From Burkholderiales bacterium (GTDB lineage: Bacteria > Pseudomonadota > Gammaproteobacteria > Burkholderiales > Burkholderiaceae_C): DNA of 64,000 bases. Positions 43,028 through 63,753 of the stretch are shown here, piece after piece. The translations under genes and the position numbers were made by a program. Within the stretch, counting starts at the first letter, position 1. Each line of letters begins with the position of its first letter. The notes beneath the pieces were generated by a model. It did no database searches. It saw only the letters and a list, made by a program, of their open reading frames with translations, and was not told the DNA's origin. Where the stretch lies: the NCBI GenBank assembly GCA_021732385.1, contig JAKFVA010000009.1:66985-130984 (forward strand). Reading direction: 5' to 3'.

Positions 43028-43656
43028 TTTATTTTCCTGGCAGGCACGCCTGCGTATACGCCGGGCTGTGCCAGTGACTCGCACACCACCGAGCCGGCTC
43101 CCACCACCGCATCGGCGCAAATCGCCACCCCTGGCAGTACGCTGGCACCAGCGCCCACCAGCACGCCTGACCCAATACGAACCCCGCCGCCCAGCACTGC
43201 GCCGGGCGCGATGTGAGAGAAGTCACCTACGCTGACATCGTGATCCACCACAGCGCCATGGTTGACGATGACGCCAATGCCCAGCGCAGCGTTTGGTGCC
43301 ACCACGGCCTGCGCGGCAACAAAGCAACCCGCGCCCATGTGGGCATGTTCTGAAACGCTGGCCATGGGGTGAATGACGCTGACCAGGCACGCCATGCCCA
43401 CCTGCGCAGCGGCAGCCCGCCGGGCCGTGTTGTCGCCAATGGCAATGTGCACTTGCTGCGTGGCAGCCCAGACTGCGGGTGCAGCGTGCAGCGCGATGCC
43501 GGGCAGCAACTCGCCAGCGCAGCGCGCCGGGTCACGGTCGGTCGCGCTCACGCTGCGCCAGGCGGCCTGGCGCACGGCTGCATCGGCCACCACCCGGCCA
43601 TGCCCGCCAGCACCAAGAATCAGCAGCGCAGGCCGCGTTTTGTTTTCCGTATTCAA
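43024..43656 (-). CDS. NeuD/PglD-family hexapeptide-repeat sugar N-acetyltransferase
   Basis: 210 aa. The N-terminal Rossmann-like segment is LLILGAGGHGRVVADAA. The C-terminal left-handed beta-helix repeats are GVIVNHGAVVDHDVSVGDFSHIAPGAVLGGGVRIGSGVLVGAGASV. Confidence 0.8.
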   Translation of the reverse strand: MNTENKTRPALLILGAGGHGRVVADAAVRQAAWRSVSATDRDPARCAGELLPGIALHAAPAVWAATQQVHIAIGDNTARRAAAAQVGMACLVSVIHPMASVSEHAHMGAGCFVAAQAVVAPNAALGIGVIVNHGAVVDHDVSVGDFSHIAPGAVLGGGVRIGSGVLVGAGASVLPGVAICADAVVGAGSVVCESLAQPGVYAGVPARKIK

Positions 43657-48256: not shown

Positions 48257-48276
48257 GACGGTCATTGGTCTCAGGT

Positions 48277-48292
48277 TTGGATGACAATCCAA
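48277..48292. promoter_or_regulatory. 16-bp palindrome TTGGATgacaATCCAA in the ~85-bp divergent promoter region of the glycan locus
   Basis: Read directly from the sequence. 6-bp perfect arms are separated by 4 bp. It lies between the Gfo/Idh/MocA start (48256/48265) and the GT-B gene start (48343). Confidence 0.3.
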
Positions 48293-48342
48293 TGGTAGTT
48301 CAGAAAATCAGCAGGGTAACCCAGCAATCGCCAGCCAAACCC

Positions 48343-49557
48343 ATGAAAAAAGCCTTGTTTGTCACCTATGGCGGCGGGCACGCAAAAATGGTTTTGCCGG
48401 TGGTGCAGCAATTCCTGCGTGACGGCCGGCTGCAAGTCCAGGTTCTGGCCCTGACCACCGCACGTGCATTGTTCGCGCGGCACGGTGTTGCCACATTGGG
48501 CTTTCATGATTTTGTTACTGCGGCAGACGCCCAGGCGCTGGCCTGGGGCCATGAACTCTGCGCCAGCACGGCGCGCCACCCGGAAATTGAGCCGCAGGAA
48601 AGCGTGGCTTATCTGGGTTTGTCGTTTGCCGATTTGGTAGCAGATGTGGGCCTGGAGCTGGCACGCAGCCGCTACGCCGCCATTGGCCGGGCAGCGTTCT
48701 GCCCAGTACACAGGCTGTCCAACATCATTGCACAACTGCGACCCGATGTGGTGGTTGCCACCAATACCCGGCGCTCTGAAATGGCTGCCATCTTGGCGGC
48801 GCGCCAGCTGGGGATTGCGGCAGTCTGCCTGGTGGACTGGTTTCCGGTTGGCGATGCGCAGGTGCTTGGCACCCCGGGTTATGCCGACCGGGTGTGCGTG
48901 CCCAACCAAGCCTCGCTTGTCCGGCTGGTTGAAGAGGGGCGGCCCGCGCGTGACATCACGGTAACTGGCAACCCGGCATTTGACAGCCTGGCAGCGCCCG
49001 GGCTGCAAAATAAAGCGCAAAAGTGGCTAAGCAACCAGCCTTGGCGAACCCGCAAAAAGATACTCTGGGCCTCACAGCCCGAGCCGATTGCGCACCGCAT
49101 CACGGGCGCGCCCGGTAACCCTGCGTTACCCGAGCAGATTTTTGACTGGCTGCGCAATATGGTGGCTCGCCACCCGGATTGGCACTTGATAGCACGGCCC
49201 CATCCCAGCGAAAACGCCAGTTTTATGCAAGCTGGCCCGCAGTGCAGCGTCAGCTTGCAAACTGAGCCGCTGCACTTGCTGCTGGCCAGCATCGACGTTG
49301 TGGTGTGCATGACTTCGACCGTCGGCTATGAGGCCGCGCTTTTGGGGAAACCACTGGTGCATATACCGCTCTCAGTGCATGGCGACGAGGCGGATTACAC
49401 CCAAATGGGTTTGGCTTTAAAGGCTGCCGAGCCTGGGCAAATTGAACAGGCGTTGGTGGCGATTCTCGAGCACCATTGGCTACCACCTCACAAGCTGCCG
49501 CCACCGGGTGGGGCCACCTCTGCCGCCTGCCAAGTCATTGTGGAGGTAGCCTGCTAG
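48343..49557 (+). CDS. Unassigned GT-B-fold protein (epimerase_2 / CMP-sugar transferase-like); candidate nonulosonate glycosyltransferase
   Basis: ATG at 48343 (MKKALFVTYGGGHAKMVLPV, a G-loop like MurG/PseG). It has LVEEGRPARDITVTGNPAFD, an E-E-G segment resembling the epimerase_2 signature. It has an HP motif (LIARPHPSE) followed by VVCMTSTVGYEAALLGKPLV. The function is not assignable by eye. Confidence 0.55.
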   Translation: MKKALFVTYGGGHAKMVLPVVQQFLRDGRLQVQVLALTTARALFARHGVATLGFHDFVTAADAQALAWGHELCASTARHPEIEPQESVAYLGLSFADLVADVGLELARSRYAAIGRAAFCPVHRLSNIIAQLRPDVVVATNTRRSEMAAILAARQLGIAAVCLVDWFPVGDAQVLGTPGYADRVCVPNQASLVRLVEEGRPARDITVTGNPAFDSLAAPGLQNKAQKWLSNQPWRTRKKILWASQPEPIAHRITGAPGNPALPEQIFDWLRNMVARHPDWHLIARPHPSENASFMQAGPQCSVSLQTEPLHLLLASIDVVVCMTSTVGYEAALLGKPLVHIPLSVHGDEADYTQMGLALKAAEPGQIEQALVAILEHHWLPPHKLPPPGGATSAACQVIVEVAC

Positions 49558-49701
49558 GCTGGCAATCAGCCGCCCCAGGCTCTCGATTGCGCGCACACCT
49601 GCATGGTAAAGTCTAAGCCGCAAAAGAAGGCTGCGCCAGTTCCCGCATGTGCGCCGCAGCACCCCTGAAAACACCCCTACCGCACTCCACAGGAAGAGGC
49701 C

Positions 49702-50928
49702 ATGACACTCTCTGAAAACGCTTTATCTGTTGTAAAAAAGACCGAGGCCGAGACCCTGGCCACTTTTCAGGAAGAAATACCCTCGATCTATTTTTCGCAC
49801 AAGGGAAAAGAAGACTACGAGACCTATGTGCAGCGTGCCGAGGTCATTTACCGCAATGACTTCAAATTTCCGCCCAAAATGTTTGACGGCGCAGAGCTGA
49901 TTGATTTTGGCGCTGGCACTGGCGAGAACACGGTTTACCTGGCCAACTGGGGCGCGCGCTGCACGCTGGTTGAAATGAACCACCTGGCGCAAAAAATCTC
50001 CAAGGACGTGTTTGCAAAATATGCCAAGCGCCCCAACGAGCACACGTTTCACCTGTCCTCAATTTTTGATTACGCACCCAATGACGGCAAGCTGTATGAC
50101 ATCGTCCATTGCCGGGGCGTGCTTTCCCACACTGCAGCCAAGGAAGAGGCGTTCCGGAAAATTTCCACCTTCCTCAAGCCCGGCGGCTTCCTGATTTTTG
50201 GCGATCCCAACAAGGCGGGCGGCTTCCAGAACATGCTGCAGCGCTTTGCGGTGTACAGCTTTGCCAATACACCCGACGAGATGGTGGACGTCAGCGAACA
50301 GCTCTTCAAGGAAGACATTGACCGCAGCGAGCGGGCGATTCCACGCACACGGCGCGCCATTATTTTCGACCGCTGGGTGATCCAGTCGCAAGACGACCCG
50401 TCCGTGGCCGAGGTCGCCTCGTGGGTCAAGGGCGCTGGCTTGCAGCTGTACTCCAGTTTCCCCAATGTCTTGCTGCCGCAAATGGGCGACTCAATTCACC
50501 ACCAGCCAAAGTTCGATCCCTTCAGCGCAAGCAATCTGTTCCCCTTGGCCGAGCTCACCTGGATGATGCAAACTGAATCCGACAGCGCGTTTTTGGGGGC
50601 CATCGACGCCAGCGCCAGCGCTTTTGCCACTGCGTTTACCGACATCAGCAGCTATGTGCAGAACTTGAACTCCAAGTCTGCGCTGGATACCCAAAAATTC
50701 AAGCAGTTGTCCCAGCAACTGGTGGCCAGTGTCAATGCCGTGCGCCCTTTCCAGCCACTGCGCGACAAACTGGCGGTTTTTGCCGCCGAGTCCTGCGCGT
50801 TCCTGGAAGTCGTCAAGGCGGGCGATCTGGCGGCTGTGCGCCGTTTCATTGAAGGCACGCAGTATCTGTTCAAAGGCGCCTGTGGTGTGCGCCATGTGGA
50901 TTTTGTGGCCTACAAGCCGCTTGCCTGA
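49702..50928 (+). CDS. Class I SAM-dependent methyltransferase with ~200-aa uncharacterised C-terminal domain
   Basis: 408 aa. Motif I is LIDFGAGTGENTVYLA and post-I is LVEMN. Also YDIVHCRGVLSHT and LKPGGFLIFGDPN. A ggaagagg SD precedes the start. GC is visibly lower than in the neighbouring genes. Confidence 0.8.
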   Translation: MTLSENALSVVKKTEAETLATFQEEIPSIYFSHKGKEDYETYVQRAEVIYRNDFKFPPKMFDGAELIDFGAGTGENTVYLANWGARCTLVEMNHLAQKISKDVFAKYAKRPNEHTFHLSSIFDYAPNDGKLYDIVHCRGVLSHTAAKEEAFRKISTFLKPGGFLIFGDPNKAGGFQNMLQRFAVYSFANTPDEMVDVSEQLFKEDIDRSERAIPRTRRAIIFDRWVIQSQDDPSVAEVASWVKGAGLQLYSSFPNVLLPQMGDSIHHQPKFDPFSASNLFPLAELTWMMQTESDSAFLGAIDASASAFATAFTDISSYVQNLNSKSALDTQKFKQLSQQLVASVNAVRPFQPLRDKLAVFAAESCAFLEVVKAGDLAAVRRFIEGTQYLFKGACGVRHVDFVAYKPLA

Positions 50929-50958
50929 TTTTTTAACCCCAATTGGAGTCACGACACC

Positions 50959-52155
50959 ATGCCACCAGTCGAAGCCGGTCGCGTTAACAGCCACAACGAG
51001 TGGGACAAGCTCAAGGAAGTCATTGTTGGCACCGCAGACGGAACCACCGCCGCACTGATCTGGATGCGCCCTGGCCCCATCCCGCCAGACGTGATGGAAA
51101 AGGCACGGGCCATTGCGGCCAAGGCCTGTCCAAAATGGTTTTACGACGAAGTGGCTGAAGACCTGCAAAACCTGGCTGACACCCTGACCAAGCTGGGTGC
51201 CAAGGTATTGCGGCCCACGCCGTACGACCAGACCCGCATGTACGGCACACCGTCCTGGACCTCCAACAGCAACAACGCCTACAACGCGCGCGATCTAAAC
51301 TTGGTGGTGGGCAACAACGTCATCGAAAGCCCCTCGTACTTGGCCAGCCGTTACTACGAAACGTCGGCGCTGTACCCCATTTGGTACCAGTACTTTGACA
51401 AGGGCTTCAAGTGGATTGCCGCGCCCAAACCAATGCTCGACTACGAGGCAAAGCTGCCCTACTTCCGCGACGAAAATGAGCGCGTGCTGACCGATGAAGA
51501 CCTCAAGCACCAGCAATTGACTGGTGGCCGGCTTGAAAAGCTGCACAAGCTAAGTGAGCAGGAAATCCTGTTTGAGGCCGCCAACACGCTGCGCATGGGC
51601 AAGGATTTGCTCTACCTCGTGTCCTCCTCGGGCAACCAAAAAGGCGCGAAATGGCTGCAAAGTGTGCTGGGTGACGAATACCGTGTGCACACCACGTCTG
51701 ACATATACCGCTCCAGTCACATTGACTCCACCTGCATGTGCCTGCGGCCCGGCCTGGTACTGCTCAACAACACGCGTGTCAGCGAGAAAAACTGCCCTCC
51801 CCTGCTTGACAAGTGGGACAAGATTTATTTTGGCGAAGTTGCCCCCACCTCAGAGGTGGAATTGAAATTCCAAAACGAGGTGCGTGATCCGCTGGGCAAC
51901 GAGCTTGAAGCGCTGGGTTTTCAAACCAACCTGCATGACATGTCTTCGCCCTGGGTAGGCATGAATTTTCTTTCGGTGGACCCGCAGACCGTGATCGTTG
52001 ACGAGCGTCAAACCGCGCTAATCAAGATGCTCGAATCGCACAAGTTCACTGTGGTGCCAATCAAGATGCGCCACATCTACACCCAGGGTGGCGGCATTCA
52101 CTGCGCCACACTCGACACAGTCAGGGAAAGCAAGCTGGAAAGCTATTTCGACTGA
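50959..52155 (+). CDS. Amidinotransferase of the arginine:glycine / inosamine-phosphate (AGAT/StrB1) family
   Basis: 398 aa. The N-terminal VNSHNEWDKLKEVIVG matches the AGAT/StrB1 signature (NEWDPLEEVIVG). The catalytic His context is SSHIDSTCMCLRPGLVLLN. The catalytic Cys near the C-terminus is GGGIHCATLDTVR. Confidence 0.85.
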   Translation: MPPVEAGRVNSHNEWDKLKEVIVGTADGTTAALIWMRPGPIPPDVMEKARAIAAKACPKWFYDEVAEDLQNLADTLTKLGAKVLRPTPYDQTRMYGTPSWTSNSNNAYNARDLNLVVGNNVIESPSYLASRYYETSALYPIWYQYFDKGFKWIAAPKPMLDYEAKLPYFRDENERVLTDEDLKHQQLTGGRLEKLHKLSEQEILFEAANTLRMGKDLLYLVSSSGNQKGAKWLQSVLGDEYRVHTTSDIYRSSHIDSTCMCLRPGLVLLNNTRVSEKNCPPLLDKWDKIYFGEVAPTSEVELKFQNEVRDPLGNELEALGFQTNLHDMSSPWVGMNFLSVDPQTVIVDERQTALIKMLESHKFTVVPIKMRHIYTQGGGIHCATLDTVRESKLESYFD

Positions 52156-52162
52156 TTCGCCT

Positions 52163-53125
52163 ATGGCCACTTACCCGGCTTCCTTTGCGCACGGCCTGAT
52201 GTTTCATCGGTTCCACCGGCAGGGGGAGCCAGCCGCCGGGCAGGGCTCAATCAGCGATGCTGCATTTGAGGCAATGCTGCGAGCCATTGGTAGCGAACGC
52301 ATCCTGGCGCCCCAGGAATGGATGTCACGGGCCAACGCTGGTTTGCTGCAACCGGCAGATCTGTGCATCACTTTCGACGACGGTCTCAAAAATCAGGTCG
52401 AGGTAGCGCTACCGGTTCTTGAACGCCTGGGGCTCAAGGCATTTTGGTTCATCTATTCGGCGGCCCTTCGTGGTAGCTATGACCGCAATGAAATTGCCAA
52501 TCTCCTGGCGACACGGTACTTTGCTTCCTTCAATGCGTATGTGCAGCAATTCGAGGCCTTGACCACGGTTTCTCCAAAGGCGTTTGAATCGGCTGACTGG
52601 CACTACTACGCGCAAGGCCTCAAGGCGCGGTTTCCCTTTTATTCAGCCAGCGACGTACGTTACCGCTACATGCGCAACCACCTGCTTTCGCTCACCGAGT
52701 TTGAAGCAGCCGTTGACCGCCTGCTGGCGTTGCTTGGGCTTGATCTGCACGCAGTCGCAGGCCAGTTGTGGATGACAGCGGACCAGGTGGGCGCACTGCA
52801 CACGTCTGGCCATGTCATTGGCATGCACTCCTACAGCCACCCTTTTTCCCTGTCCGCGCTTAGTGCCCGGGATCAGCGGGTTGAATACCAGGCCAATTTT
52901 GATGATTTGACGCAGATCACTGGCCAGCCGCCGCGGAGCATGTCGCATCCGCTCAACTCCTACTCACCTGCAACGCTGGAAATCCTGGCTAATTTGGGGA
53001 TTGAGTGTGGGTTCTGTTCGAACATGCAACCGCCCGGCGGGCATGCCTCGGTGAATCCCAGCCCGTTGGAATTCGCTCGCGAGGATTCAACCACCCTACT
53101 GGCGCTGACCGCCAGCAGCGGTTAA
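52163..53125 (+). CDS. Polysaccharide deacetylase (NodB-homology) family protein
   Basis: ATG at 52163 (MATYPASFAHGLMFHRFH). The NodB motif 1 is ITFDDGLKNQ. Also LKAFWFIY and GMHSYSHP. The stop overlaps the stop of the convergent GS-like gene. Confidence 0.8.
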   Translation: MATYPASFAHGLMFHRFHRQGEPAAGQGSISDAAFEAMLRAIGSERILAPQEWMSRANAGLLQPADLCITFDDGLKNQVEVALPVLERLGLKAFWFIYSAALRGSYDRNEIANLLATRYFASFNAYVQQFEALTTVSPKAFESADWHYYAQGLKARFPFYSASDVRYRYMRNHLLSLTEFEAAVDRLLALLGLDLHAVAGQLWMTADQVGALHTSGHVIGMHSYSHPFSLSALSARDQRVEYQANFDDLTQITGQPPRSMSHPLNSYSPATLEILANLGIECGFCSNMQPPGGHASVNPSPLEFAREDSTTLLALTASSG

Positions 53126-54423
53126 AAGAAATCCACGTAACGGCGAAATTCCGCGGGTGAAATAGCCAGTGCCAGTTCGTCACACTCCGCGCGCTTGCAA
53201 GCAACAAATTCATCCACAAAGACCTGGCCCAGACCCTCGCACAGGGGCCGGTCTGCCTCAAGCAGGTCGAGTGCATCGGGCAGCGCCTGGGGCAGGCGTG
53301 CAATGCCACGCTCGGCCAAGTCGTAGGCGCTAAGCGTATACAGGTTTTCATTGCACGGCGGCCCAGGGTCAAGTTGGCGTGCAATGCCGTCCAAGCCTGC
53401 GTAAATCACCGCTGCAGTCAGCAAATACGGGTTGGTGGAAGCATCCGGCAGGCGCAACTCCAGCCGTCCGCCCGGGCCGCGTACAAAAGCCGTGCGGTTG
53501 TTGTTGCCATACGCCACATGCACAGGCGCCCAGGTGGCCCCAGAACGCGACCCTCTGGAAACCAGCCGTTTGTAGGAGTTGACGCAGGGTGCAGCAATGG
53601 CAGTCAGGCCCTGAGCATGCGCCATTAGGCCGCCCAGAAAATAGTACGCCAGACTGCTCAGTTGCAAGCCATTGGGGTCAGATGCATCCTCAAAAGCGTT
53701 GTGGCCAAAATGCTTACCAGCCGACATGTGCATGTGCAGCCCGCTGCCGGAACGCTCGGCAAACGGTTTGGGCATAAAGGAGCACAGCATGCCGTGCTTT
53801 TTGGCAATGGCCTGCGCCGCCATCTTGAAATACGTCAGGTTGTCGGCGGTCTGCAAGCCCTGCGCATAGGTGAAGTTCATTTCAAACTGGCCATTGGCGT
53901 CCTCATGATCAATCTGGTAGACGTCGATCTCCGCGCCTTCCAGCGCCGAGCGCAGCTCCATCAGAAAGTCCGACACCGACGACAGATGCCGGAAGTCATA
54001 GCAAGGCTTGGCCAGCGACTCGGAATCGGTCGCCACCTCATACGCATCGCCGTTGCGCTTAAGCAGAAAGAACTCGGGTTCCAGGCCGGTGAAAAAATCC
54101 AGACCGGTGGCAGAACGGAAAGCCGCGAGCGCCTTCTTGGCGATCACGCGGGAATCAAGCGGGTGCGGCTTGCCATCCACATGCCCGTCACAGCTTACCG
54201 TAGCGGTGCCCGGCATCCAGGGCACCGGGCGAATGGTATTTTTGTCGCCCACCGCCATAAACTCGCGCCCGTGCGGGCCCATGCCCATGCCGGCAATGGC
54301 AAAGCCGGCAAAACCCGCACCCGCGCCAAAGATCATCTCTTTGTGTTTGGCTGGCACCAGCTTGGCCTTGGGTCGACCATGGATATCGACAAACTGGGCG
54401 AGGTAATAATCAAAATCTTTCAT
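53122..54423 (-). CDS. Glutamine-synthetase-family ligase (GS type III / gamma-glutamyl-amine synthetase-like)
   Basis: 433 aa. The beta-grasp N-domain is YYLAQFVDIHGRPKAKLVP. The catalytic domain has EPEFFLL, IDHEDANGQFEMNF, GSGLHMHMS and NSYKRL. Confidence 0.85.
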   Translation of the reverse strand: MKDFDYYLAQFVDIHGRPKAKLVPAKHKEMIFGAGAGFAGFAIAGMGMGPHGREFMAVGDKNTIRPVPWMPGTATVSCDGHVDGKPHPLDSRVIAKKALAAFRSATGLDFFTGLEPEFFLLKRNGDAYEVATDSESLAKPCYDFRHLSSVSDFLMELRSALEGAEIDVYQIDHEDANGQFEMNFTYAQGLQTADNLTYFKMAAQAIAKKHGMLCSFMPKPFAERSGSGLHMHMSAGKHFGHNAFEDASDPNGLQLSSLAYYFLGGLMAHAQGLTAIAAPCVNSYKRLVSRGSRSGATWAPVHVAYGNNNRTAFVRGPGGRLELRLPDASTNPYLLTAAVIYAGLDGIARQLDPGPPCNENLYTLSAYDLAERGIARLPQALPDALDLLEADRPLCEGLGQVFVDEFVACKRAECDELALAISPAEFRRYVDFF

Positions 54424-54452
54424 GCCGTACTCACTGCCTTGTCGTTAGTTGG

Positions 54453-56198
54453 TTACGGAAAAAATTCTTGCAACCACAGCTTGGTCATCAGCATGGTGCG
54501 CAATTGCCGCGTATGGTTGTGCAAACCGCTGCGGTGCTCGTCGAGCATCACATGCAGCTCCTTGCTGTCAAAACGTCCGCCATCGGGTAGGGCCAACACA
54601 TCGCGCGCCCAGCTGTAGAGGGGGCCCTTGATCCACTCGCCAATCGGCAGGGTGGGCATGGTCTTGGGACGGAATACAAAGTCATGGTCGAAATAATTTA
54701 CCGCGGCAGCTTTGAGGAAATGCTTGCCTGTGCCCTGGTGGTACTTGCTGGTAATCGGCAGGCGCGCAAACAGCTCGCTGACCCGGTGATCGAGAAACGG
54801 CGCGCGCCCCTCTATCGACCAGAACGCGCCCATGCGGTCGCCCTTGACGGCGTTGTTGCCAGGCAGAAGGTAATGCAGCTCATAGGCGGCCACCTGCTCC
54901 ATGGGTTCGAGGTCGGCAAAAGGCCGCACCATCTCCAAAAAGCACGCCAGCGCGTTCTGGGTATGCGGCAAGAAGCCCGGGCTCATCATGCGCTGGCGGT
55001 CTTTGTCGCTGCTGTAGCTGATCAGGTCAAAGTAGCTGTGCATGGAGAAATTGGTGCGCGGCATCTCGGAGAAAAACTGCTCGTTGTGCCTGAAGCCGAG
55101 CATCACTTCATCGGGCCCGTCGCCGGTAAACATGACGATCTTGCCCATCTCGTGCGCGCGGCGCGAGAGCAGGTAAAACAGAAAGAACGAGAAGTCGCCG
55201 TGCGGCTGTTCGGCCTGGCGCACCACCGATTGCGCAATTGCCGGGATGTCTTGCGGCGTGATGTCAAGTGCCGATAAATTGATGTTCAGTTCATCGGCCA
55301 CGCGCTGGGCGTATTGGTATTCCGAAAAGCCTTTTTCCTCGATACGCAGGCCAATCGCGTCGATTTGCGGGCGGTTCCATTGCCTGGCCAGCCGCGCGGC
55401 AATCACCGACGAATCTACCCCACCCGACAGGAACAGGCCGCCATCGACGTCAAAGCGCATTTGCGTGGTGATGGCGGCGTCCAGCGCAGCCTCCAGTTGC
55501 GCGTGGGTAGCGTCTTGGCGCTCTCCACTGATGGGCCACTGCCAGTAGGCCACCGGCTGCGAAAACGCGCCATTTTGGTAGCGGATGTAGCTGCCCGGCG
55601 GCAGTTGCTTGATGCCTTCAAAACAGGTTTCGGGTGGCGGACAGTAGTTGAACGAGAACACGTGGCCCAACGCGGCTTCGTTGACTTTTTTCTCGAAGTT
55701 GGGTAACGCCAAAATTGCCTTCATCTCGCTGGCAAACGCCAGACCGCCCTGGTAGGGCGCGTAGAAAAAAGGTTTGATGCCCTGCCGGTCACGCGCCAGC
55801 AGTGCGGTTTGGGTGCGTGTATCCCAGATACAAAAGGCAAATACGCCCACCAAGTCATCCAGCATCCTCTCGCGCTTTTCGTCCCACAGGTGCACCAGCA
55901 CCTCAGTGTCGCAGCGCGACTTGAATTTATAGCCCTTGGCCTTGAGCTGCTCGCGCAGTTCAATGAAGTTGTAGATTTCGCCATTGAAGACCACCCACAC
56001 GCTGCCATCGGCATTGCACATGGGCTGCATGCCGTTCTCGCGGTCAACCACCGCCAGGCGCGCGTGGCCCAAAATGGCTGCGCCCAGCGCCTTGACACCC
56101 ATCTCGTCGGGGCCGCGGTACTTGATGCACTCGATCATCTGCTCCACATGCGCTGCGCTGACGCCCGAGGCACCGACCACTCCCGTCATTCCACACAT
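54453..56198 (-). CDS. asnB: Asparagine synthase (glutamine-hydrolysing) family amidotransferase
   Basis: 581 aa. The N-terminal nucleophile is MCGMTGVV. The Ntn glutaminase domain has HARLAVVD and VFNGEIYNF. The PP-loop is FLSGGVDSSVIAA. Confidence 0.9.
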   Translation of the reverse strand: MCGMTGVVGASGVSAAHVEQMIECIKYRGPDEMGVKALGAAILGHARLAVVDRENGMQPMCNADGSVWVVFNGEIYNFIELREQLKAKGYKFKSRCDTEVLVHLWDEKRERMLDDLVGVFAFCIWDTRTQTALLARDRQGIKPFFYAPYQGGLAFASEMKAILALPNFEKKVNEAALGHVFSFNYCPPPETCFEGIKQLPPGSYIRYQNGAFSQPVAYWQWPISGERQDATHAQLEAALDAAITTQMRFDVDGGLFLSGGVDSSVIAARLARQWNRPQIDAIGLRIEEKGFSEYQYAQRVADELNINLSALDITPQDIPAIAQSVVRQAEQPHGDFSFFLFYLLSRRAHEMGKIVMFTGDGPDEVMLGFRHNEQFFSEMPRTNFSMHSYFDLISYSSDKDRQRMMSPGFLPHTQNALACFLEMVRPFADLEPMEQVAAYELHYLLPGNNAVKGDRMGAFWSIEGRAPFLDHRVSELFARLPITSKYHQGTGKHFLKAAAVNYFDHDFVFRPKTMPTLPIGEWIKGPLYSWARDVLALPDGGRFDSKELHVMLDEHRSGLHNHTRQLRTMLMTKLWLQEFFP

Positions 56199-56252
56199 AA
56201 CTGTCCTTTTGAATTTAGCGTCATTTTTAAACCTGTCTGCCGCCTAAAACGC

Positions 56253-57677
56253 CTAGCCTTTGGCGTCAATGCGCGCAATTTTTCGGCTGGTGGGCGCATT
56301 GTTTACCAGCGCCTCATCGTGGGCATCTTCATGGAACACCTTTCGGAAAATGCCAATCTGATAGTCCAGGCTGGCCTTGGATTCAGTCTCGGTAGGCTCA
56401 ATCAGCATGGCCGATTTGAGGTCGCCCGGAAAGTACACACAGCCGGCCCCCACCAGCGTGGGCGGGTGAATACCGTAGTCAATCAAGCGCTTGGCAAACT
56501 GGCGCGCCGACGTATTGAGCCGCTCACCCGAAAGCAGGGTTTCATGCTTGCAATGCCCGAGGTAAACCGGTGGCAGCATGGGTGCGAGCTGGTGCTGCAA
56601 ATAATTGGCATTGAGCACGGCGTTTTCAGACGCCTCGCGCAGCCCAGCTGCGCCCATGGTGCGCAAATAGCCATAGGCACGCAGTAGCACCGCCACATGG
56701 CCATGAAAGCTCTTGATTTGGCCAATCGACAAGGGGCGCTGCATGTCGGGCGCGCACACGCCGTCTGCAGCACGCACCACCACCGGGCTGGGCAAGTACG
56801 CTGCTAGCGCGTGCTTGACGGCCACCGGCCCTGCGCCTGGCCCGCCGCCACCATGCGGCGTGGCAAAAGTTTTGTGCACATTCACATGCACCACGTCAAA
56901 GCCCATGTCGCCCGGTCGCACGATGCCCATCAGCGCGTTCAGGTTGGCGCCGTCGTAGTACAACAGCGCGCCGTTGGCATGCACCAGAGCGGCAATTTCC
57001 ACAATCTGGTCTTCAAACAAACCCAGCGTGGACGGGTTGGTGAGCATGAAGGCCGCCACATCGGGGGTGAGCATGGCACGCAGCGCCGCCATATCCACCC
57101 GGCCCTGCGGGTTGCTGGGCACGATGCGGCAGACAAACCCCGCCATGGCAGCCGACGCCGGGTTGGTGCCGTGCGCGGAATCGGGCACCAGCACCACCGG
57201 GCGGTTTTGCCCGATGTGCTGAAAATGCGCGCGAATCGTCAGCAGTCCGGCCAGCTCGCCTTGCGCACCTGCGGCCGGTGCCAGGCAGCAGCTGTGCATG
57301 CCGGTGATCTCGCACACCATGGTTTGCAGGCGCTCGTACAGCGCCCAGACACCGCCCAAGGTGGCGCTGGGCTGCAGCGGATGCGCATAGGCAAAGCCAG
57401 GCAGCAACGCCAGCACGTCATTGCGCTTGGGGTTGTATTTCATGGTGCATGAGCCCAGCGGATAGGGGCCGTTGTCCACCCCGTGTGACTCTAGGCTGAG
57501 GCGTGTGAAATGGCGCACCACATCCACCTCGCTGACTTCCGGTAGGCCCATCGCCGTGCGCGCTTTGGCAAATGCGGGCAAGGCAGCCATGGCGGGTGTA
57601 TCGGCCATGCCGCCCAGCGCGTCACTGGCAGCGCCGGGGCGGTGCAGATCAAGCAGGGTTTGGGAGATGGCGCTCAT
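56253..57677 (-). CDS. gcvPB: Glycine dehydrogenase (aminomethyl-transferring) subunit 2
   Basis: 474 aa. GSCTMKYNPK, AAGAQGELAGLL and PDSAHGTNPASA. The PLP-lysine context is HVNVHKTFATPHGGGGPGAGPVAV. It overlaps gcvPA by 4 nt. Confidence 0.9.
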   Translation of the reverse strand: MSAISQTLLDLHRPGAASDALGGMADTPAMAALPAFAKARTAMGLPEVSEVDVVRHFTRLSLESHGVDNGPYPLGSCTMKYNPKRNDVLALLPGFAYAHPLQPSATLGGVWALYERLQTMVCEITGMHSCCLAPAAGAQGELAGLLTIRAHFQHIGQNRPVVLVPDSAHGTNPASAAMAGFVCRIVPSNPQGRVDMAALRAMLTPDVAAFMLTNPSTLGLFEDQIVEIAALVHANGALLYYDGANLNALMGIVRPGDMGFDVVHVNVHKTFATPHGGGGPGAGPVAVKHALAAYLPSPVVVRAADGVCAPDMQRPLSIGQIKSFHGHVAVLLRAYGYLRTMGAAGLREASENAVLNANYLQHQLAPMLPPVYLGHCKHETLLSGERLNTSARQFAKRLIDYGIHPPTLVGAGCVYFPGDLKSAMLIEPTETESKASLDYQIGIFRKVFHEDAHDEALVNNAPTSRKIARIDAKG

Positions 57678-59098
57678 GCGGGCACCCGTGCTGCCTGGTG
57701 CAGCTCGAGCAGGACGGTGCTGGCCTGCGCCGCATAGGCGTTCAGGTCAGCCTGGGTCTTGGTTTCGGTGACCGCCACCAGCAAGCCGCGGCTGTGGCCT
57801 GCCAGCGCCGGGGCCAGCGGCAGGCCGGCAAAAATTCCGCGCGCCAGCATGCGCTCACAAAAAAGCGTGGCGTCCACCGGCAGTTCCAGCGCAAATTCAT
57901 TAAAGGCTGTGCCACTGCACAGCGGCCGCACTGCGGGCACGGCCAGTAAGCGCTTTTGCAGATAAGCCGCGTTGGCGGCATTGGCCTGGGCAACGCGCAG
58001 GAGATTGTGCTCGCCAAGACAGGCCAGATGCACTGCCACCCGGATTGCGTTGAGCGCCTGGTTGGAGCAGATGTGGCTGGTGGCCTTGTCGCGCGCCACA
58101 TGCTGCTCGCGGTCTTCCTTAACCAGGGCGTAACCCAGCTGGCCATTGAGGTCATGCAGGCGGCCGACCAAGCGGCCTGGCAAAAACCGCTCCAGCGGCT
58201 TGGCGCATGCAATGATGCCGATGTAAGGGCCGCCCGCATTAAGCGGCAGGCCAAGCGGCTGGCCTTCGCAGGCCACAATGTCCGCGCCCAACTGGCCGGG
58301 CGATTCAATCCAGGCACACAGCAAGGGGTTGACGCTGACGCACAGCAACGCCTGGTGCTGTTGGCACAGTGCAGCGGCGCTGGCGACATCTTCCACCACG
58401 CCCAACGCATTGGGACTTTGCACCAGCACACCGGCCACGTCACGGGCTTGCAGCAGCTTGGCCAGCGCGGCGTTGTCAATCAAACCGGTAGCCGCGTCAC
58501 GCGGCACGCTGTCCAGCTGAACGCCGCGTGGCAGCAAATAGGTTTGCAGCACCTCGCGGTAAGTGGGCCACAGGCTTGGCGGCAGCAGCAGGCGGCGCTT
58601 GCCCGAAGCCGAGCACATCATCCAGGCGGCCTCCGCCAATGCAGTGGCACCGTCATAAACCGAGCAGTTGACGCACTCACGCCCCAGCAAACGCCCGGCC
58701 AGCACCTGAAACTCAAACAGCGCCTGCAGCAGGCCCTGGCTCATCTCGGGCTGGTAGGGTGTGTAGGCGGTGAGAAATTCGCCGCGCGAGGCCACCGCCT
58801 CGACCACGGCGGGAATGTAGTGCTCATACGCGCCACCACCCAGATAGCAGGCGTGGGTTTGCGTGCTGCTGTTGCGGCTGGCCAGCTCGCGCACATCACG
58901 CAGCAAGGCCCATTCAGACAGCGGCGCAGGCAAATCCAGCGGTCGCTTGAGGCGCACCGAGTCGGGGATATCGGCAAACAGTTCTTCAATGCAGTGCAAA
59001 CCCATGGCCGCCAGCATGGCGTCAATGTCGACCTGGGTGTGGACGTTGTAGCCCGTGGGTTTACGGGCGGGTTGCGCATCAAATCGGCTTTGATTCAC
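57674..59098 (-). CDS. gcvPA: Glycine dehydrogenase (aminomethyl-transferring) subunit 1
   Basis: 474 aa with a GTG start. YLGGGAYEHYIPAVVEAVASRGEFLTAYTPYQPEMSQGLLQALFEFQ and YDGATALAEAAWM. Confidence 0.9.
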   Translation of the reverse strand: MNQSRFDAQPARKPTGYNVHTQVDIDAMLAAMGLHCIEELFADIPDSVRLKRPLDLPAPLSEWALLRDVRELASRNSSTQTHACYLGGGAYEHYIPAVVEAVASRGEFLTAYTPYQPEMSQGLLQALFEFQVLAGRLLGRECVNCSVYDGATALAEAAWMMCSASGKRRLLLPPSLWPTYREVLQTYLLPRGVQLDSVPRDAATGLIDNAALAKLLQARDVAGVLVQSPNALGVVEDVASAAALCQQHQALLCVSVNPLLCAWIESPGQLGADIVACEGQPLGLPLNAGGPYIGIIACAKPLERFLPGRLVGRLHDLNGQLGYALVKEDREQHVARDKATSHICSNQALNAIRVAVHLACLGEHNLLRVAQANAANAAYLQKRLLAVPAVRPLCSGTAFNEFALELPVDATLFCERMLARGIFAGLPLAPALAGHSRGLLVAVTETKTQADLNAYAAQASTVLLELHQAARVPA

Positions 59099-59195: not shown

Positions 59196-59765
59196 TCAGT
59201 TGCCCTGCCCGCCAAACAGGCGCGCCGCCGTCCAAGCCATGATTTTGAGGTCCAGCCACAGCCCGGGCAAGCCACGCGCCTGCTGCACGTAGGCCAGATC
59301 AAGCGCCAGCCGCTGCTCGAAGCTGCCCGCCGAGCGGATGCGTGCCTGCGCCAACCCAGTGATGCCAGGGCGAACACTGCAACGCAGCAACCAGTCGGCG
59401 TCGGTATACAGCGTGCGCTGCAGCGGCACATCGGGGCGCGGCCCCACCAGGCTCATGTGGCCCTGCAGCACATTGATGAGTTGCGGCAACTCGTCAATAC
59501 TGGTGGCCCGGATAAAGCGGCCCACGCTGGTAATGCGCGGGTCATCACTGCTGCTGGTGTAGTAGGGGCCAATGCGCGCCGCATCCTTGACCATGCTGCG
59601 AAATTTGAGTATGGAAAATTCACGCCCATGCAAGCCCACGCGGGTTTGCTTGAAAAACACCGGCCAGCCGCTTTGCAGCGCAATCGCCAGCGCGGCCAGC
59701 AACAGCAGCGGGCTCAGCACCAGCAGAGCCAGCGCCGACACGCCGATATCAAGCAACCGCTTCAT
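59196..59765 (-). CDS. Small monotopic phosphoglycosyl transferase (bacterial sugar transferase, PglC/WbaP-C-like)
   Basis: 189 aa. MKRLLDIGVSALALLVLSPLLLLAALAIAL is the re-entrant helix. Also PVFFKQTRVGLHGREFSILKFRSM, DELPQLINVLQGHMSLVGPRP and PGITGLAQ. The start overlaps the upstream stop (ATGA). Confidence 0.85.
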   Translation of the reverse strand: MKRLLDIGVSALALLVLSPLLLLAALAIALQSGWPVFFKQTRVGLHGREFSILKFRSMVKDAARIGPYYTSSSDDPRITSVGRFIRATSIDELPQLINVLQGHMSLVGPRPDVPLQRTLYTDADWLLRCSVRPGITGLAQARIRSAGSFEQRLALDLAYVQQARGLPGLWLDLKIMAWTAARLFGGQGN

Positions 59766-60568
59766 GCTTGCGCCGGGAGCCGGCTGGCGATCTGCTCAAT
59801 GGTGTGCCTGATGCGCAGTCGATCTGCCTCGATTTGTGCCCCACTGCGCTCGGCCAGTGCCAGTTCAGCTTGGCGCAAGGCCGCGACTTGCCCCTCAAAG
59901 CGCTGGCTGTTTTCACTGCGATGGAAAGTGCGCGACAAGATCACGGCGCTAGAGCCCAGCCGCAGGTGCTCGGCCAGCACATCGCGGCCCGGCAGCAGGC
60001 CCTCGTTCAACTGCGCCATACCGCCAAAACCAAAGCGCAAACCCCGGGTACTGGCCGCCAGCGCCACCTGCTCAACCACGCCCTGCGCCAGCGGCTCAAA
60101 CATGAAACGCAGGCCCAGCGACAAATGCAAATCGTTCAGGCCGACATACACCTCGGCCAATCCTGGTGTGTCAATCCATTGCGCCAGCGTATCCAGCGCC
60201 CCCCCGGTCTCTAGCAGCGCTACCACCGGTGCCCGGCCCGCCACCAGGGCGCAGAACTGGCGCAGTGTGGCGGCATCGGCAAACATCGGCAGCATCAACA
60301 GGTCGGCACCCTGGGCCAGCACGGCATCCAGCTCGGCTGACGTGGCCGCGTTCAAGGGATTGACGCGCACCATCAGGCGGGTATGCCGTAACACCGCTTT
60401 GATGCGGCCCACATCGTCGATCTGGTGACTGCTGATAAAAGTATCGCGCCCGGCCTGGCGCTGGGCTTTGCCCAGGCGCTCGAGGTCGACGAACAGGCGC
60501 ATGCCGGGCAGCGCGTCGCATCGGCGCGCCATGGCGGGGTCATTGGTGATTTGCAGCAAGTCAAGCAT
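59762..60568 (-). CDS. HpcH/HpaI aldolase / citrate-lyase-like TIM-barrel family protein
   Basis: 268 aa. MVRVNPLNAATSAELDAVLAQGADLLMLPMF, ALLETGGAL and VYVGLNDLHLSLG fit the HpcH_HpaI pattern. The substrate is unknown. Confidence 0.65.
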   Translation of the reverse strand: MLDLLQITNDPAMARRCDALPGMRLFVDLERLGKAQRQAGRDTFISSHQIDDVGRIKAVLRHTRLMVRVNPLNAATSAELDAVLAQGADLLMLPMFADAATLRQFCALVAGRAPVVALLETGGALDTLAQWIDTPGLAEVYVGLNDLHLSLGLRFMFEPLAQGVVEQVALAASTRGLRFGFGGMAQLNEGLLPGRDVLAEHLRLGSSAVILSRTFHRSENSQRFEGQVAALRQAELALAERSGAQIEADRLRIRHTIEQIASRLPAQA

Positions 60569-60580
60569 GGGCGGTATAAA

Positions 60581-62137
60581 TTATCGGCGTAGCGCGGCGC
60601 GCACATCGGGGCTGGCGAGCAAGCTGCTGGCCAGCACAGCCGTAGCAGCTGCCGCGCCTGCCGCAAAACCCAGCCAGAGGTTTTTTTCAAGCCCAGCAAA
60701 GGCACCCAGGCGAGCCAGCCCATCGACAATCAACAGCAACGCCACCGGAGGCAGCAGCGCGCGTGCCCACAAGCCCCGATCACGGCTTGGCGGGTGCAGC
60801 CAGCCGCGCCGCGCTGCCAGCACGCAAACCAGCGCAACCAAGACATACAAAACATTGAGCCAGACCATCAAGCGGTCACCTTGCGATACGCCCGCTGCGC
60901 CCAACGCCAACAACGCGAGCAAAGCCAGCGCATAGGCGGCCACCGCAGCCCGCATGCGCGCTTGCGCGGCCAGCACCGTCAGCGCCACTGCAATCAACGC
61001 CTGAGGCAGCAGCCCCCAGGCACCGGCACGGCCCCACTGTGCAATCGACGCCAGTGCATCAGGCGTCATCTTGCCCCAGCCAAACAGCAGTTGCGCAATG
61101 GCCGGTGCTGCCACCAGCAGCGCGCAGGCACAGGCGCAGGCCAACCCCCAGGCCAGCGCCATGGCCCCGCGCACCGTGCTGGCCGCCGCATCGGGTAGCT
61201 GCGGGGTTTTGCCATCCAGGGCTTTGACAATGCCGGGGAAAGCCAGGGTGGCCACCAGTTGAATTGCCAGCACCAGTGGCAGCTCCACCAACTTCCATGC
61301 GTAGTTGAACATGGCTAGCGCGCCCTCGCCTTGTTGCGAGGCCAGGGAACGCGCCACAAAAGGCAAGGTCAATGGCAAACCCGCCGACAGCGCTGCCCAC
61401 AACCAAATCGCAGGGCCGGGCAAACGCGCAGTTGGCACAGGCGTTGTGGATTCCATCGCGCCAAGCAAGCGCTGCTGGTTACGCAGGCGAAGCACCATCC
61501 AGACCAGGCGCAGCAGCATGGCTAGCAGCAACCCCAGGCCCAAAACCAGCACCAGCCAGCGTGTCTGCAACAGGCTCGCCGCCACAAAAACCAGGGTGCC
61601 AATTAACACCAGATTAACCACCAGACTGGCTGCGTACATGCCGGTGAAGTCGCGCTCGTGTTGAAGCCGCGTGCTCCACAGCGCTGCCAGCAAGGCCAGC
61701 GGCACAGCCAAGGCGCTCCACATCAGCGCCTGCCCGCCAAACGACAGCAAGCCAGGCGGCAGGCCAGGCACCAAAAGACGCAGCAATAAGGCGGGCTGCC
61801 ACAGCGCAGCCAGCAGCCACGCCAGTGCCAGCAGCAAACCTCCGCCCAGCAAACCGCGCGCTACCAGGCGCTGACTGGACGCCACCTGCTGCCTGGTTTG
61901 CGCCGCCCAAGACGGCAGCAGCACAAAGGCGAGCGCACCGCTGGCCAGCAAACCGGCAAACCAGTCGGGTAGGGCAAACATAAGCACCACCACATCGGCC
62001 AGCCCCGATGTGCCAAACGCCCCCGCCATCACCGACTCGCGCAGCAAGCCCAGCAGGCGGCTAAGCAGCAACAAGGTCAGTGACACGGCAGCGGCTTTGA
62101 CAAACATGGCTGGATTATCTAGTGCCGCACCTGCCAT
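60581..62137 (-). CDS. murJ: MurJ/MviN-family (MOP superfamily) flippase, divergent paralog
   Basis: 518 aa with about 14 TM segments. The N-terminus LSRLLGLLRESVMAGAFGTSGLADVVVLMFALPDWFAGLLASGALAFVLLP follows the MurJ pattern (SR-LG--R-------FG-----DAF--AF--PN-LRR-FAEGA). The basic RR pair is replaced by WF-AG. An alternative ATG lies at 62107. Confidence 0.7.
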   Translation of the reverse strand: MAGAALDNPAMFVKAAAVSLTLLLLSRLLGLLRESVMAGAFGTSGLADVVVLMFALPDWFAGLLASGALAFVLLPSWAAQTRQQVASSQRLVARGLLGGGLLLALAWLLAALWQPALLLRLLVPGLPPGLLSFGGQALMWSALAVPLALLAALWSTRLQHERDFTGMYAASLVVNLVLIGTLVFVAASLLQTRWLVLVLGLGLLLAMLLRLVWMVLRLRNQQRLLGAMESTTPVPTARLPGPAIWLWAALSAGLPLTLPFVARSLASQQGEGALAMFNYAWKLVELPLVLAIQLVATLAFPGIVKALDGKTPQLPDAAASTVRGAMALAWGLACACACALLVAAPAIAQLLFGWGKMTPDALASIAQWGRAGAWGLLPQALIAVALTVLAAQARMRAAVAAYALALLALLALGAAGVSQGDRLMVWLNVLYVLVALVCVLAARRGWLHPPSRDRGLWARALLPPVALLLIVDGLARLGAFAGLEKNLWLGFAAGAAAATAVLASSLLASPDVRAALRR

Positions 62138-62208
62138 GAGCCGCGCCCGAGGCCACTAAAATCAGCGCCTTGCCGCACAGCCCTTGAGCGGCGCAGCCCC
62201 CACACACC

Positions 62209-63753
62209 ATGTCCGACCACACCCCTGCCAGCCCAGCCCCTGCCGCCGCGCCCGACGAAAACCAGTTGATCACCGAGCGGCGCGACAAGCTCAAGGCAAT
62301 TCGCCAAACCCAGGCCCAGGGCGGCCCGGTGGCTTTTCCCAACGACTTCAAGCCCGCCGACCGCGCCGCCGCCCTGCTGGCCGCGCACCAGGCCAGCAGC
62401 GCCGATGAACTTGCCGCACTGGCCATCCCAGCCAGCGTGGCCGGGCGCATGGTACTCAAGCGCGTGATGGGCAAGGCCAGCTTTGCCACACTGCAGGACA
62501 GCAGCGGCCGTACCCAAATCTACGTGGCACGCGATGTGGTGGGCGACGAAACCTACACCGCCTTCACGCATTGGGACTTGGGCGACATCGTGGCCGCCGA
62601 GGGCCAGCTCTTCAAAACCAAAACCGGTGAACTCTCGATTCGCGCCAGCCGTATCCGCCTGCTGACCAAAAGCCTGCGCCCGCTGCCCGACAAGTTTCAC
62701 GGCATGGCCGACCAGGAGCAAAAGTACCGCCAGCGCTACGTGGATTTGATTACCGACGAGGCCGCCCGGACGCGTTTTGTGGCGCGCAGCAAAGCCGTCA
62801 GCGGCCTGCGCGACTTTATGGTGGGCCATGGTTTTTTAGAGGTGGAAACACCGATGCTGCATCCGATTCCCGGCGGTGCCAACGCCCGGCCTTTCAGCAC
62901 GCACCACAACGCGCTTGATCAGGCCATGTACCTGCGCATTGCGCCCGAGCTGTATTTGAAGCGGCTGCTGGTGGGCGGGTTTGAGCGCGTGTTCGAGATC
63001 AACCGCAACTTCCGCAATGAAGGCATCAGCGTGCGGCACAACCCCGAATTCACCATGATGGAGTTTTACGCCGCCTACTGGAACTACCTCGACCTGATGG
63101 ACTTTACCGAGGCGCTGGTGCGCGACGCCGCGCAAAAAGCCTGCGGCACCCTGCACCTGAGCTACAGCGGCAAAGCAGTGGATTTAACGCAACCGTTTGA
63201 GCGCCTGACGATTGTGCAGGCCATTGCCAAATACACCGACGCGGGCACCCATGTGCATGACGCCGCCTGGCTCACGCAGGCGCTCAAAAAACTTGGCAAA
63301 ACCGAAGAAAAAGACCGCCTGAGCGGCGGCAGCCTGGCCAGCCTGCAAGTGCAATACTTTGAGGAGACCGTGGAAGACAAGCTCTGGCAGCCCACCTTCA
63401 TCATGGAGCACCCCACTGAAATCTCCCCACTGGCACGCGCCAACGACGCCCGCCCCGAGGTGACCGAGCGTTTTGAGCTCTACATCACCGGGCGCGAATT
63501 TGGCAACGGCTTCAGCGAGTTGAACGATGCCGAAGACCAGGCCGCCCGCTTGCAAGCGCAAGTGGACGCCAAAGACGGCGGCGACGACGAAGCCATGTAC
63601 TTCGACCACGACTTTGTACGCGCGCTTGAATACGGCATGCCCCCGGCAGGCGGTTGCGGCATTGGCATTGACCGCCTGATGATGCTGCTGCTGGATGCAC
63701 CCAGCATCCGCGACGTGATTTTGTTTCCAGCACTGCGCCGTGAGGCGCATTGA
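62209..63753 (+). CDS. lysS: Lysine--tRNA ligase (class II)
   Basis: 514 aa. [23 protein letters not shown] and the OB fold [21 protein letters not shown]. Class II motifs are [15 protein letters not shown] and [13 protein letters not shown]. Confidence 0.97.

Follow-up and report, generated by a model that had tools for sequence, protein, structure and literature searches.

Glycine decarboxylase, the P-protein of the glycine cleavage system (EC 1.4.4.2), has aminomethyl-H-protein as its product, and a two-subunit form is described from Thermus thermophilus (1wyt). In a 64,000-nucleotide stretch of a Burkholderiales metagenome-assembled genome (MAG; GenBank assembly GCA_021732385.1, contig JAKFVA010000009.1, positions 66,985 to 130,984), here called the window, the genes for both subunits, gcvPA and gcvPB, stand in one run with genes for an AsnB-type amidotransferase and a glutamine synthetase (GS)-like ligase of the GmaS type, inside a glycan locus, and it is this four-gene cassette that we analyzed. 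Its P-protein is like the Thermus enzyme in its full-length homology, its lysine motif for pyridoxal phosphate (PLP) and all widely conserved residues. It differs in its setting, as no genes for the T-, H- and L-proteins and no glycine riboswitch were found in the window, the P genes lie between the genes for a phosphoglycosyltransferase (PGT) and the amidotransferase, and they are gained and lost together with the ligase gene. The product that we propose for it is free methylamine rather than aminomethyl-H-protein.

The other parts of the cassette also have described counterparts. The GmaS enzymes of the N-methylglutamate pathway (RhGmaS, 7cql; 9qur) share 44-55% identity, the methylamine pocket, the catalytic residues and the loss of the GS ammonium residues with the ligase studied here. 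That pathway serves methylamine assimilation, whereas the present context is one of anabolic glycan tailoring, in which methylamine would come from intracellular glycine, and genes for N-methylglutamate synthase or dehydrogenase were found neither in the window nor in the related loci. The AsnB-like enzymes TsnB9 and SaHAT, of the trichostatin and benzohydroxamate pathways, take hydroxylamine from glutamyl hydroxamate and attach it to a carboxylate activated by ATP, and there too an AsnB-family gene stands beside those of enzymes that provide a γ-glutamyl-X donor, from which X-NH2 passes to the activated carboxylate. We take them as a direct enzymological precedent for the proposed relay, although the window AsnB belongs to another subfamily, its donor would be made by a ligase and not by N-oxygenation, and where they act on a polyketide or an aromatic acid its acceptor would be a sugar. 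Its architecture of two domains and its catalytic residues are shared by the amidotransferase of XrtA/PEP-CTERM exopolysaccharide loci (TIGR03108) and by peptidoglycan meso-diaminopimelate amidotransferases, but the N-terminal 380 residues of the window AsnB reach 401 bits against TIGR03108, under its cut-off of 817, and the protein falls into a separate orthologue group.

That a component of glycine cleavage can supply a one-carbon-nitrogen unit to another pathway is outlined for [FeFe]-hydrogenase maturation, which uses aminomethyl-lipoyl-H-protein (PMC11736057). Maturation needs the H-protein and builds a metal-cluster ligand, whereas the cassette has no linked H-protein gene and its unit would go to a sugar. 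On the side of the product, the nearest comparison is with shewanellose-containing O-antigens, which combine a legionaminic acid (Leg)-type nonulosonic acid (NulO) with a 6-deoxy-N-acetylhexosamine (6-deoxy-HexNAc). Among the enzymes of the window locus are a 4,6-dehydratase, one that resembles pyruvate aldolases, and an amidotransferase, and the corresponding core locus is present in a Shewanella genome. This likeness is a proposal and not a match. The cassette predicts an N-methylcarboxamide, and shewanellose has a plain carboxamide.

What is new here is the way in which known enzyme families are combined. Our literature search, which included work on C. botulinum and Y. ruckeri, returned no paper connecting a P-protein, GmaS or AsnB with NulO loci. 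We read the combination as a methylamine cassette that would feed AsnB during the synthesis of a shewanellose-type branched sugar, and for this reading as a whole we see a chance just short of even.

Recurrence of the cassette and its joint gain and loss

A GcvPA scan over one genome per species found the cassette in 12 species genomes of the Comamonadaceae (Acidovorax, Polaromonas, including the complete genome of P. aquatica, and Ramlibacter). In all 12 the order is lysS, MurJ-family flippase, HpcH/HpaI-like protein (HpcH), PGT, GcvPA (PA), GcvPB (PB), AsnB, GmaS and glycosyltransferase (GT), followed by NulO genes. The PA-PB-AsnB-GmaS block is also present at 46-61% identity in Nitrospina sp. 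32_T5, where it is embedded in PglF, PglD and PglE genes, and it recurs in a Rhodobacterales MAG beside NeuB and NeuC. Further look-ups brought a Verrucomicrobiales MAG, whose gene order is that of the Comamonadaceae throughout, and four more metagenomic lineages. Altogether the block was found in at least seven lineages, always beside NulO genes or PglF/E/D (bacillosamine-type) genes. The original prediction had called the block a tailoring module rather than a part of glycine catabolism, and its recurrence with sugar genes in distant phyla supports this; the survey of gene neighborhoods that it had suggested did turn up recurrent synteny of gcvPA-gcvPB-asnB-GS with such genes. The unit had been drawn with four genes, and whereas the linkage of P, AsnB and GmaS holds, the conserved unit usually also includes the HpcH/HpaI-type aldolase gene, which accompanies the cassette in the Comamonadaceae, Nitrospina, the Rhodobacterales MAG, the Verrucomicrobiales MAG and the metagenomic locus L175.

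The P-protein and GmaS genes come and go together. AsnB orthologues without P genes (L091, L093, L094 and L171) are also without GmaS, and no locus has one of the two alone. Because these cassette-less members are scattered across the AsnB tree, the tree topology implies several independent gain or loss events of the cassette. At the cassette-less loci the PGT gene abuts the AsnB gene (0-2 nt), whereas at cassette loci PA-PB sit exactly at that junction and GmaS follows directly after AsnB. The gene content, the family signatures, the synteny and the co-variation across phyla are direct observations, and P-protein and GmaS very probably form one functional unit serving AsnB.

These distributions bear on one alternative, namely, that the P genes are the housekeeping glycine decarboxylase of the organism and came to lie in a glycan locus by chance. 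Related split P-proteins of Verrucomicrobia, Sorangium and Methylococcaceae are likewise encoded without adjacent gcvT and gcvH, and for this genome the evidence on T, H and L covers the 64-kb window, both of which would suit such a role. We nevertheless give it almost no credence: the PA-PB-AsnB-GmaS order is shared by at least seven distant lineages, with PA-PB between PGT and AsnB, the P genes are lost along with GmaS, and Betaproteobacteria, as is generally known, normally have a single-chain gcvP beside gcvT and gcvH.

Two of the surveyed loci have further features of their own. In Nitrospina (L031, 1125-6831), four consecutive genes for MORN-repeat proteins flank the cassette, two of them with caspase (Peptidase_C14) domains. 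The metagenomic locus L171 (9001-19249) carries three AsnB-family genes, one of which is a clade-I orthologue without the cassette, with MurJ, Wzy_C, PGT and NulO genes alongside.

Signatures of the ligase, the P-protein and the amidotransferase

All four cassette proteins score above the curated cut-offs for GcvPA, GcvPB, the AsnB type and GS-like proteins (Table 1), in agreement with the original prediction, and every motif quoted there is present, namely, LTAYTPYQPEMSQG in GcvPA, the PLP-lysine context NVHKTFATPHGGGGPG in GcvPB, MCGM and SGGVDSS in AsnB and GSGLHMHMS in the ligase. The hidden Markov models used for GcvPA and GcvPB are curated, full-length and specific for the respective subunit (equivalog level), and the model matched by the ligase is that of 'type III' GS-like proteins.

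The ligase, which the original prediction had called GS-like, can be assigned more specifically by its scores and its residue signature. It aligns at 497 bits and 55% identity with 9qur, a solved structure described as 'glutamate--methylamine ligase', and at 326 bits with RhGmaS (7cql), versus about 227 bits or less with true GS (GS I, II and III). According to the RhGmaS paper, the methylamine pocket of that enzyme is formed by Tyr147, Gln175, Asp177, Glu179, Glu186, Asn188 and Lys30', Arg312 is catalytic, Ala and Trp stand where GS has Asp50' and the flap Glu, respectively, and the Km is lowest with methylamine and far higher with NH4Cl. The seven pocket residues, Arg312 and both replacements are identical in the window ligase and in seven other cassette ligases, and the window ligase is without both ammonium-handling residues of true GS. 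In all likelihood, then, the GS-like protein is a GmaS-type enzyme. The cassette GmaS proteins fall into two GmaS subclades that are about 40% identical to each other; the window-type subclade is 55% identical to 9qur, and identity to RhGmaS is 56-59% for the proteins of Nitrospina, Rhodobacterales and L169, 57% for L092 and 61% for L170, with L175 more divergent at 50%. Since both subclades carry the full signature, what is conserved across the cassettes appears to be GmaS function and not lineage.

It is conceivable that such a ligase γ-glutamylates another amine, either an amino sugar or a different small amine; the P-protein would then remove CO2 from a glycine-like moiety, AsnB would amidate the carboxylate of the glutamyl group, and an N-acyl sugar of the glutamyl or glutaminyl type would result. 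GS-like ligases are known for a variety of amines, GmaS accepts a range of small alkylamines, and N-methylglutamyl legionaminic acid occurs in C. botulinum flagellin. An amine pocket identical to that of methylamine-specific GmaS, however, leaves little room for a sugar, and the active-site columns of the P-protein are the same as in glycine-specific enzymes, which makes this route highly improbable.

The P-protein itself is canonical. GcvPA aligns with chain A of the Thermus enzyme (1wyt_A) at 317 bits and GcvPB with chain B (1wyt_B) at 404 bits, with the HKTF lysine motif in register. When columns conserved in at least 90% of 30 other split P-proteins were compared with nine cassette proteins, all 73 in PA and all 111 in PB were identical in all nine. 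We had considered that the P-protein might be neofunctionalized, but we do not claim that its active site is altered, as there is no cassette-specific change at the conserved PB positions and in PA just three positions, of surface type, are partly relaxed. The idea of a separate 'orphan' P clade was likewise dismissed, for in the tree the cassette P-proteins group with non-cassette ones from Verrucomicrobia, Sorangium and Methylococcaceae. The cassette P-protein exists in split and single-chain forms, because GcvPA and GcvPB are fused into one open reading frame (ORF) of about 915 residues in the Rhodobacterales MAG (L036, 7395-10142) and are fused or frameshifted in the metagenomic locus L175 (10365-13056). 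The non-cassette gcvPA-gcvPB pairs of Verrucomicrobia are followed by a response-regulator gene.

The amidotransferase has TsnB9 (7ylz; about 226 bits) as its best match among solved structures. Cys2, R47, N72-G73-E74, D97 and the PP-loop S258GGVDSS are invariant, and its orthologue group is sharply bounded, with at least 48% identity inside and then at most 36% for generic AsnB-like proteins. Within this group, all 13 cassette-linked AsnB proteins have Asn383, whereas the four cassette-less orthologues have R, E, T and T at this position; if sites are independent, chance alone would yield about 0.001 columns that co-vary so perfectly. The residue lies in a variable segment that follows the conserved acidic loop of the synthetase domain and that cannot be aligned to E. 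coli AsnB.

These signatures also speak to the idea of a nitrogen-supply module, in which the P-protein would cleave glycine together with the H, T and L proteins of the cell, the ligase would trap the ammonia as glutamine, and AsnB would make an ordinary carboxamide. Fully canonical P-proteins, the acceptance of ammonium by RhGmaS as a poor substrate, and the plain carboxamide of shewanellose, the known sugar, would all fit. Against it stand a ligase with the full GmaS pocket in two independent subclades and neither ammonium residue of GS, cassette-less loci that manage without any dedicated nitrogen supply, the plentiful glutamine of cells, and the co-variation at Asn383, which implies that AsnB itself differs where the cassette is present. 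We therefore consider a mere supply of nitrogen improbable.

The proposed amide relay and its sugar acceptor

Shewanellose, 2-acetamido-2,6-dideoxy-4-C-(3'-carboxamide-2',2'-dihydroxypropyl)-D-galactose, occurs in Shewanella putrefaciens A6 with an 8-epilegionaminic acid derivative. Its branch would be the expected outcome of a pyruvate aldolase and an amidotransferase acting on the product of PglF. In the window as well as in Shewanella sp. 3B26 (L172), a 4,6-dehydratase, a candidate enzyme for donation of the C3 unit and an amidotransferase are encoded with Leg-type NulO genes. Shewanellose reportedly also occurs in Morganella morganii. Because the gene set matches shewanellose chemistry, we propose a shewanellose-type sugar with an N-methylated carboxamide; that the acceptor is a sugar of this type is a tentative assignment, which we rate at somewhat under an even chance. 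The original prediction had considered an N-methyl amidine or amide on the sugar, with glycyl or glutamyl N-acylation as an alternative. In our view the target is probably another one, the likeliest acceptor being the pyruvate-derived carboxylate of the branched sugar and not an N-acetimidoyl or glutamyl group on legionaminic acid.

The chemical steps, the acceptor and a P-protein acting without H-protein are what we infer from the genes. The seven same-strand genes from 62137 to 53122, with the NulO genes, would build a short undecaprenyl-linked glycan composed of a legionaminic-acid-type sugar and a shewanellose-type C-branched 6-deoxy-HexNAc. The PglF-like dehydratase would form UDP-4-keto-6-deoxy-HexNAc, the HpcH/HpaI-type aldolase would join C3 of pyruvate to the C4 keto group to give a CH2-CO-COOH branch, and the AsnB-type enzyme would adenylate and then amidate the branch carboxylate. 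GcvPA/GcvPB and GmaS would be an add-on that switches the nitrogen donor: the P-protein would convert glycine to methylamine by decarboxylation, GmaS would join methylamine and glutamate to γ-glutamylmethylamide, and the glutaminase domain of AsnB would hydrolyze this compound in place of glutamine, so that methylamine and not ammonia meets the acyl-adenylate and an N-methylcarboxamide results. The relay through methylamine and γ-glutamylmethylamide is the one that the original prediction had outlined, and the data are in keeping with it; for the methylamine relay to an amide we see roughly an even chance. The more demanding proposal is that the P-protein was taken over alone, without its partners in glycine cleavage, and serves only to make methylamine for biosynthesis, which passes through γ-glutamylmethylamide and AsnB to an N-methylcarboxamide on a pyruvate-branched, shewanellose-type sugar; this we hold to be less likely than not.

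The proposed carbon donor step depends on the HpcH-like protein, whose match to PF03328 (32 bits) lies above the cut-off of 25. A profile of its family matches the aldolases YfaU and HpaI at E=4e-7, versus 2e-3 for an acyl-CoA lyase. E120 and D146 align with the metal ligands of YfaU, and R68, E120 and D146, which are invariant in 30 homologues, correspond to the Arg/Glu/Asp catalytic set of class II pyruvate aldolases. Its AF2 model (pLDDT 93.8) has a TIM-barrel fold, with HpcH/HpaI and CitE-like lyases as the top Foldseek matches (probability 1.0, TM about 0.62).

A core of MurJ, HpcH, PGT, AsnB, GT and PglF genes also exists without the cassette, in Shewanella sp. 3B26 (L172), in an assembly labelled E. 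coli and in metagenomes. In Shewanella it adjoins Leg-type genes and HisH/HisF-type amidino genes, and the latter would be consistent with an acetamidino modification of the partner sugar. The AsnB tree places two non-orthologous AsnB lineages in the same slot after HpcH-PGT. In the assembly labelled Escherichia coli (GCA_048234355.1; L173/L174), the MurJ-HpcH-PGT-AsnB-GT-PglF core and a legionaminic-acid-type locus lie directly upstream of wza-wzb-wzc. When the HpcH-PGT-AsnB locus of this assembly was compared by megablast with 5,426 complete RefSeq E. coli genomes, none matched. Either the locus specifies an uncommon type of surface polysaccharide, or the assembly is mislabelled.

The same methylamine relay could end on the nonulosonic acid instead, if the PP-loop domain of AsnB activated the N5 N-acetyl carbonyl of legionaminic acid to give an N-methylacetimidoyl group (Leg5AmNMe7Ac type). 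N-Methylacetimidoyl legionaminic acids occur in Legionella and Campylobacter, amidine formation is established for the PP-loop enzymes TilS and argininosuccinate synthetase, the window locus is without the HisH/HisF-type amidino genes of Polaromonas, Verrucomicrobiales and Shewanella, and the cassette loci L092 and L170 show no HpcH in range. On the other hand, the AsnB-family enzymes characterized to date adenylate carboxylates, many loci have the cassette as well as a separate HisH/HisF amidino set, and the position of AsnB is tied to HpcH-PGT and not to the NulO genes. An amidine product is thus unlikely in our judgment.

Returning to the N-methylcarboxamide on a shewanellose-type sugar, several points weigh against it. 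The sequence of the P-protein gives no sign of methylamine release or of independence from H-protein, since its conserved residues are unchanged and its clade is shared with non-cassette P-proteins. Methylamine release by the isolated P-protein is known only as a very slow side reaction. The closest non-cassette relatives of the P-protein (L021-L030, from Limisphaerales, Cerasicoccus, Methylococcaceae and Sorangium) are also split gcvPA-gcvPB pairs, with 49-56% identity in PA, and they have no gcvT, gcvH, AsnB or GmaS genes nearby; because these relatives, too, are without T and H neighbors, their absence is weak evidence when taken alone. Regarding the acceptor, Foldseek scores aldolases and CitE-like acyl-CoA lyases alike for the HpcH-like protein (TM about 0.6), and the AsnB proteins of the Shewanella and 'E. 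coli' loci are only 33-34% identical to the window AsnB. No HpcH gene was found within the fetched flanks of the cassette loci L092 and L170, so that the acceptor may differ or vary among cassette loci. Our literature search found no paper identifying shewanellose genes, no O-antigen structure for Shewanella sp. 3B26 and no glycan with an N-methylcarboxamide or N-methylamide group. Nor is any glycan that carries an N-methylcarboxamide known to us.

Locus layout and implications

The four cassette genes lie on the minus strand exactly as described in the original prediction, with a 4-nt overlap of PA and PB and gaps of 54 nt between PB and AsnB and 29 nt between AsnB and GmaS (Table 1). Upstream, the PglC-like PGT and the MurJ-like flippase had been recognized, while the HpcH/HpaI-like gene between them, which overlaps the PGT gene by 4 nt, had been overlooked. 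On gene spacing alone the block would appear to be co-transcribed; a promoter and terminator scan of 52.5-62.4 kb gave no signal above shuffled expectation.

Table 1. Genes of the cassette and of the surrounding glycan locus, with positions in the window
Feature	Positions	Strand	Length and family evidence
GcvPA, P-protein subunit 1	57674-59098	-	474 aa, GTG start; NF001696 507 bits (cut-off 364)
GcvPB, P-protein subunit 2 (PLP-lysine subunit)	56253-57677	-	474 aa; NF003346 600 bits (cut-off 441)
AsnB-type glutamine-hydrolyzing amidotransferase	54453-56198	-	581 aa; PF00733, PF13537, TIGR01536 398 bits (cut-off 267)
Probable GmaS-type γ-glutamyl-(methyl)amine ligase	53122-54423	-	433 aa; TIGR03105 525 bits (cut-off 470)
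Small PglC-like polyprenyl-phosphate phosphoglycosyltransferase (PGT, Bac_transf)	59196-59765	-	PF02397 E=7.5e-61
HpcH/HpaI-type class II metal-dependent 2-oxoacid aldolase/lyase-like protein	59762-60568	-	PF03328 32 bits
MurJ/MOP-family flippase, first gene of the same-strand run	60581-62137	-	PF03023 E=2e-24
Epimerase_2-fold, BFO_1060-like glycosyltransferase, candidate nonulosonic-acid transferase	48265-49557	+	PF02350, NF046086
S-Adenosylmethionine-dependent methyltransferase	49702-50928	+	Pfam/NCBIfam
Arginine-deiminase/DDAH-superfamily protein	50959-52155	+	Weak match; C-terminal catalytic region alone scores
Polysaccharide deacetylase	52088-53125	+	Pfam/NCBIfam
Legionaminic-acid-type pathway: PglF-like 4,6-dehydratase, CBS-PglE-like aminotransferase, PglD-like acetyltransferase, NeuC, NeuB, SDR, CMP-transferase, GFO/IDH/MocA oxidoreductase	39631-48292	-	Pfam; PseF-like cytidylyltransferase

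The missing partners of glycine cleavage had been noted before, and the window agrees: the large ORFs that were scanned include none that matches GCV_T, GCV_H or dihydrolipoamide dehydrogenase (ORFs at about 31.2-34.9 kb and small ORFs lay outside the scan), and Rfam gave no glycine riboswitch. T, H and L genes were not found in the flanks of about 25 related loci either. The 'orphan' status of the P-protein is a statement about the 64-kb window only. The other scanned window genes are housekeeping genes, namely, rne, hem genes, acnB, mdh, sdhAB, gltA, leuCDB, asd, fimV, truA, genes for a TRAP transporter and lysS. A 236-aa ORF at 62119-62829 on the minus strand, considered as a further gene, has no family match. 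When it was compared with related loci by tblastn, the matches lay within lysS but on the other strand, which makes a spurious antisense ORF the most likely explanation.

The flippase scores far under a typical housekeeping MurJ with PF03023, and its place upstream of HpcH-PGT is shared by the loci of Comamonadaceae, Verrucomicrobiales, Shewanella and the assembly labelled E. coli; in the same four, homologues of the glycosyltransferase at 48265-49557 come after GmaS or AsnB. The three genes at 49702-53125, for the methyltransferase, the arginine deiminase-like protein and the deacetylase, are absent from the Polaromonas and Acidovorax loci. The corresponding position in Polaromonas, Acidovorax, Verrucomicrobiales and Shewanella is taken by HisF/HisH-like genes and a gene for an unannotated protein of about 420-440 residues. 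The three genes may provide an alternative route for modifying the N-acyl or amidino group of the nonulosonic acid. The PglE-type aminotransferase (41522-43120, minus strand) has an N-terminal extension of about 150 residues with a CBS domain, as it does in the Rhodobacterales and Verrucomicrobiales loci. The GC content is 0.57-0.60 over the glycosyltransferase, methyltransferase, arginine deiminase-like, deacetylase, GmaS and AsnB genes (48000-56000) versus 0.63-0.65 over gcvPA/gcvPB and the flanks, and because of this difference we suggest a mosaic origin of the locus.

To our knowledge, there is no dedicated enzyme for the conversion of glycine to methylamine. If our proposal is true, the cassette would reveal a new physiological reaction of the P-protein and add it to central one-carbon and nitrogen biochemistry, and it would give GmaS an anabolic role outside methylotrophy and lead to a previously unseen sugar modification. 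It would also be the second independent case, after TsnB9, in which an AsnB-type enzyme has been reprogrammed by a γ-glutamyl-amine donor, pointing to a general way to install substituted amides.

The HpcH-PGT-AsnB-PglF core provides the first testable gene set for shewanellose. The presence of the cassette in the cultured isolates Polaromonas aquatica 36b22 and Acidovorax sp. D2M1 makes the proposed chemistry directly testable.

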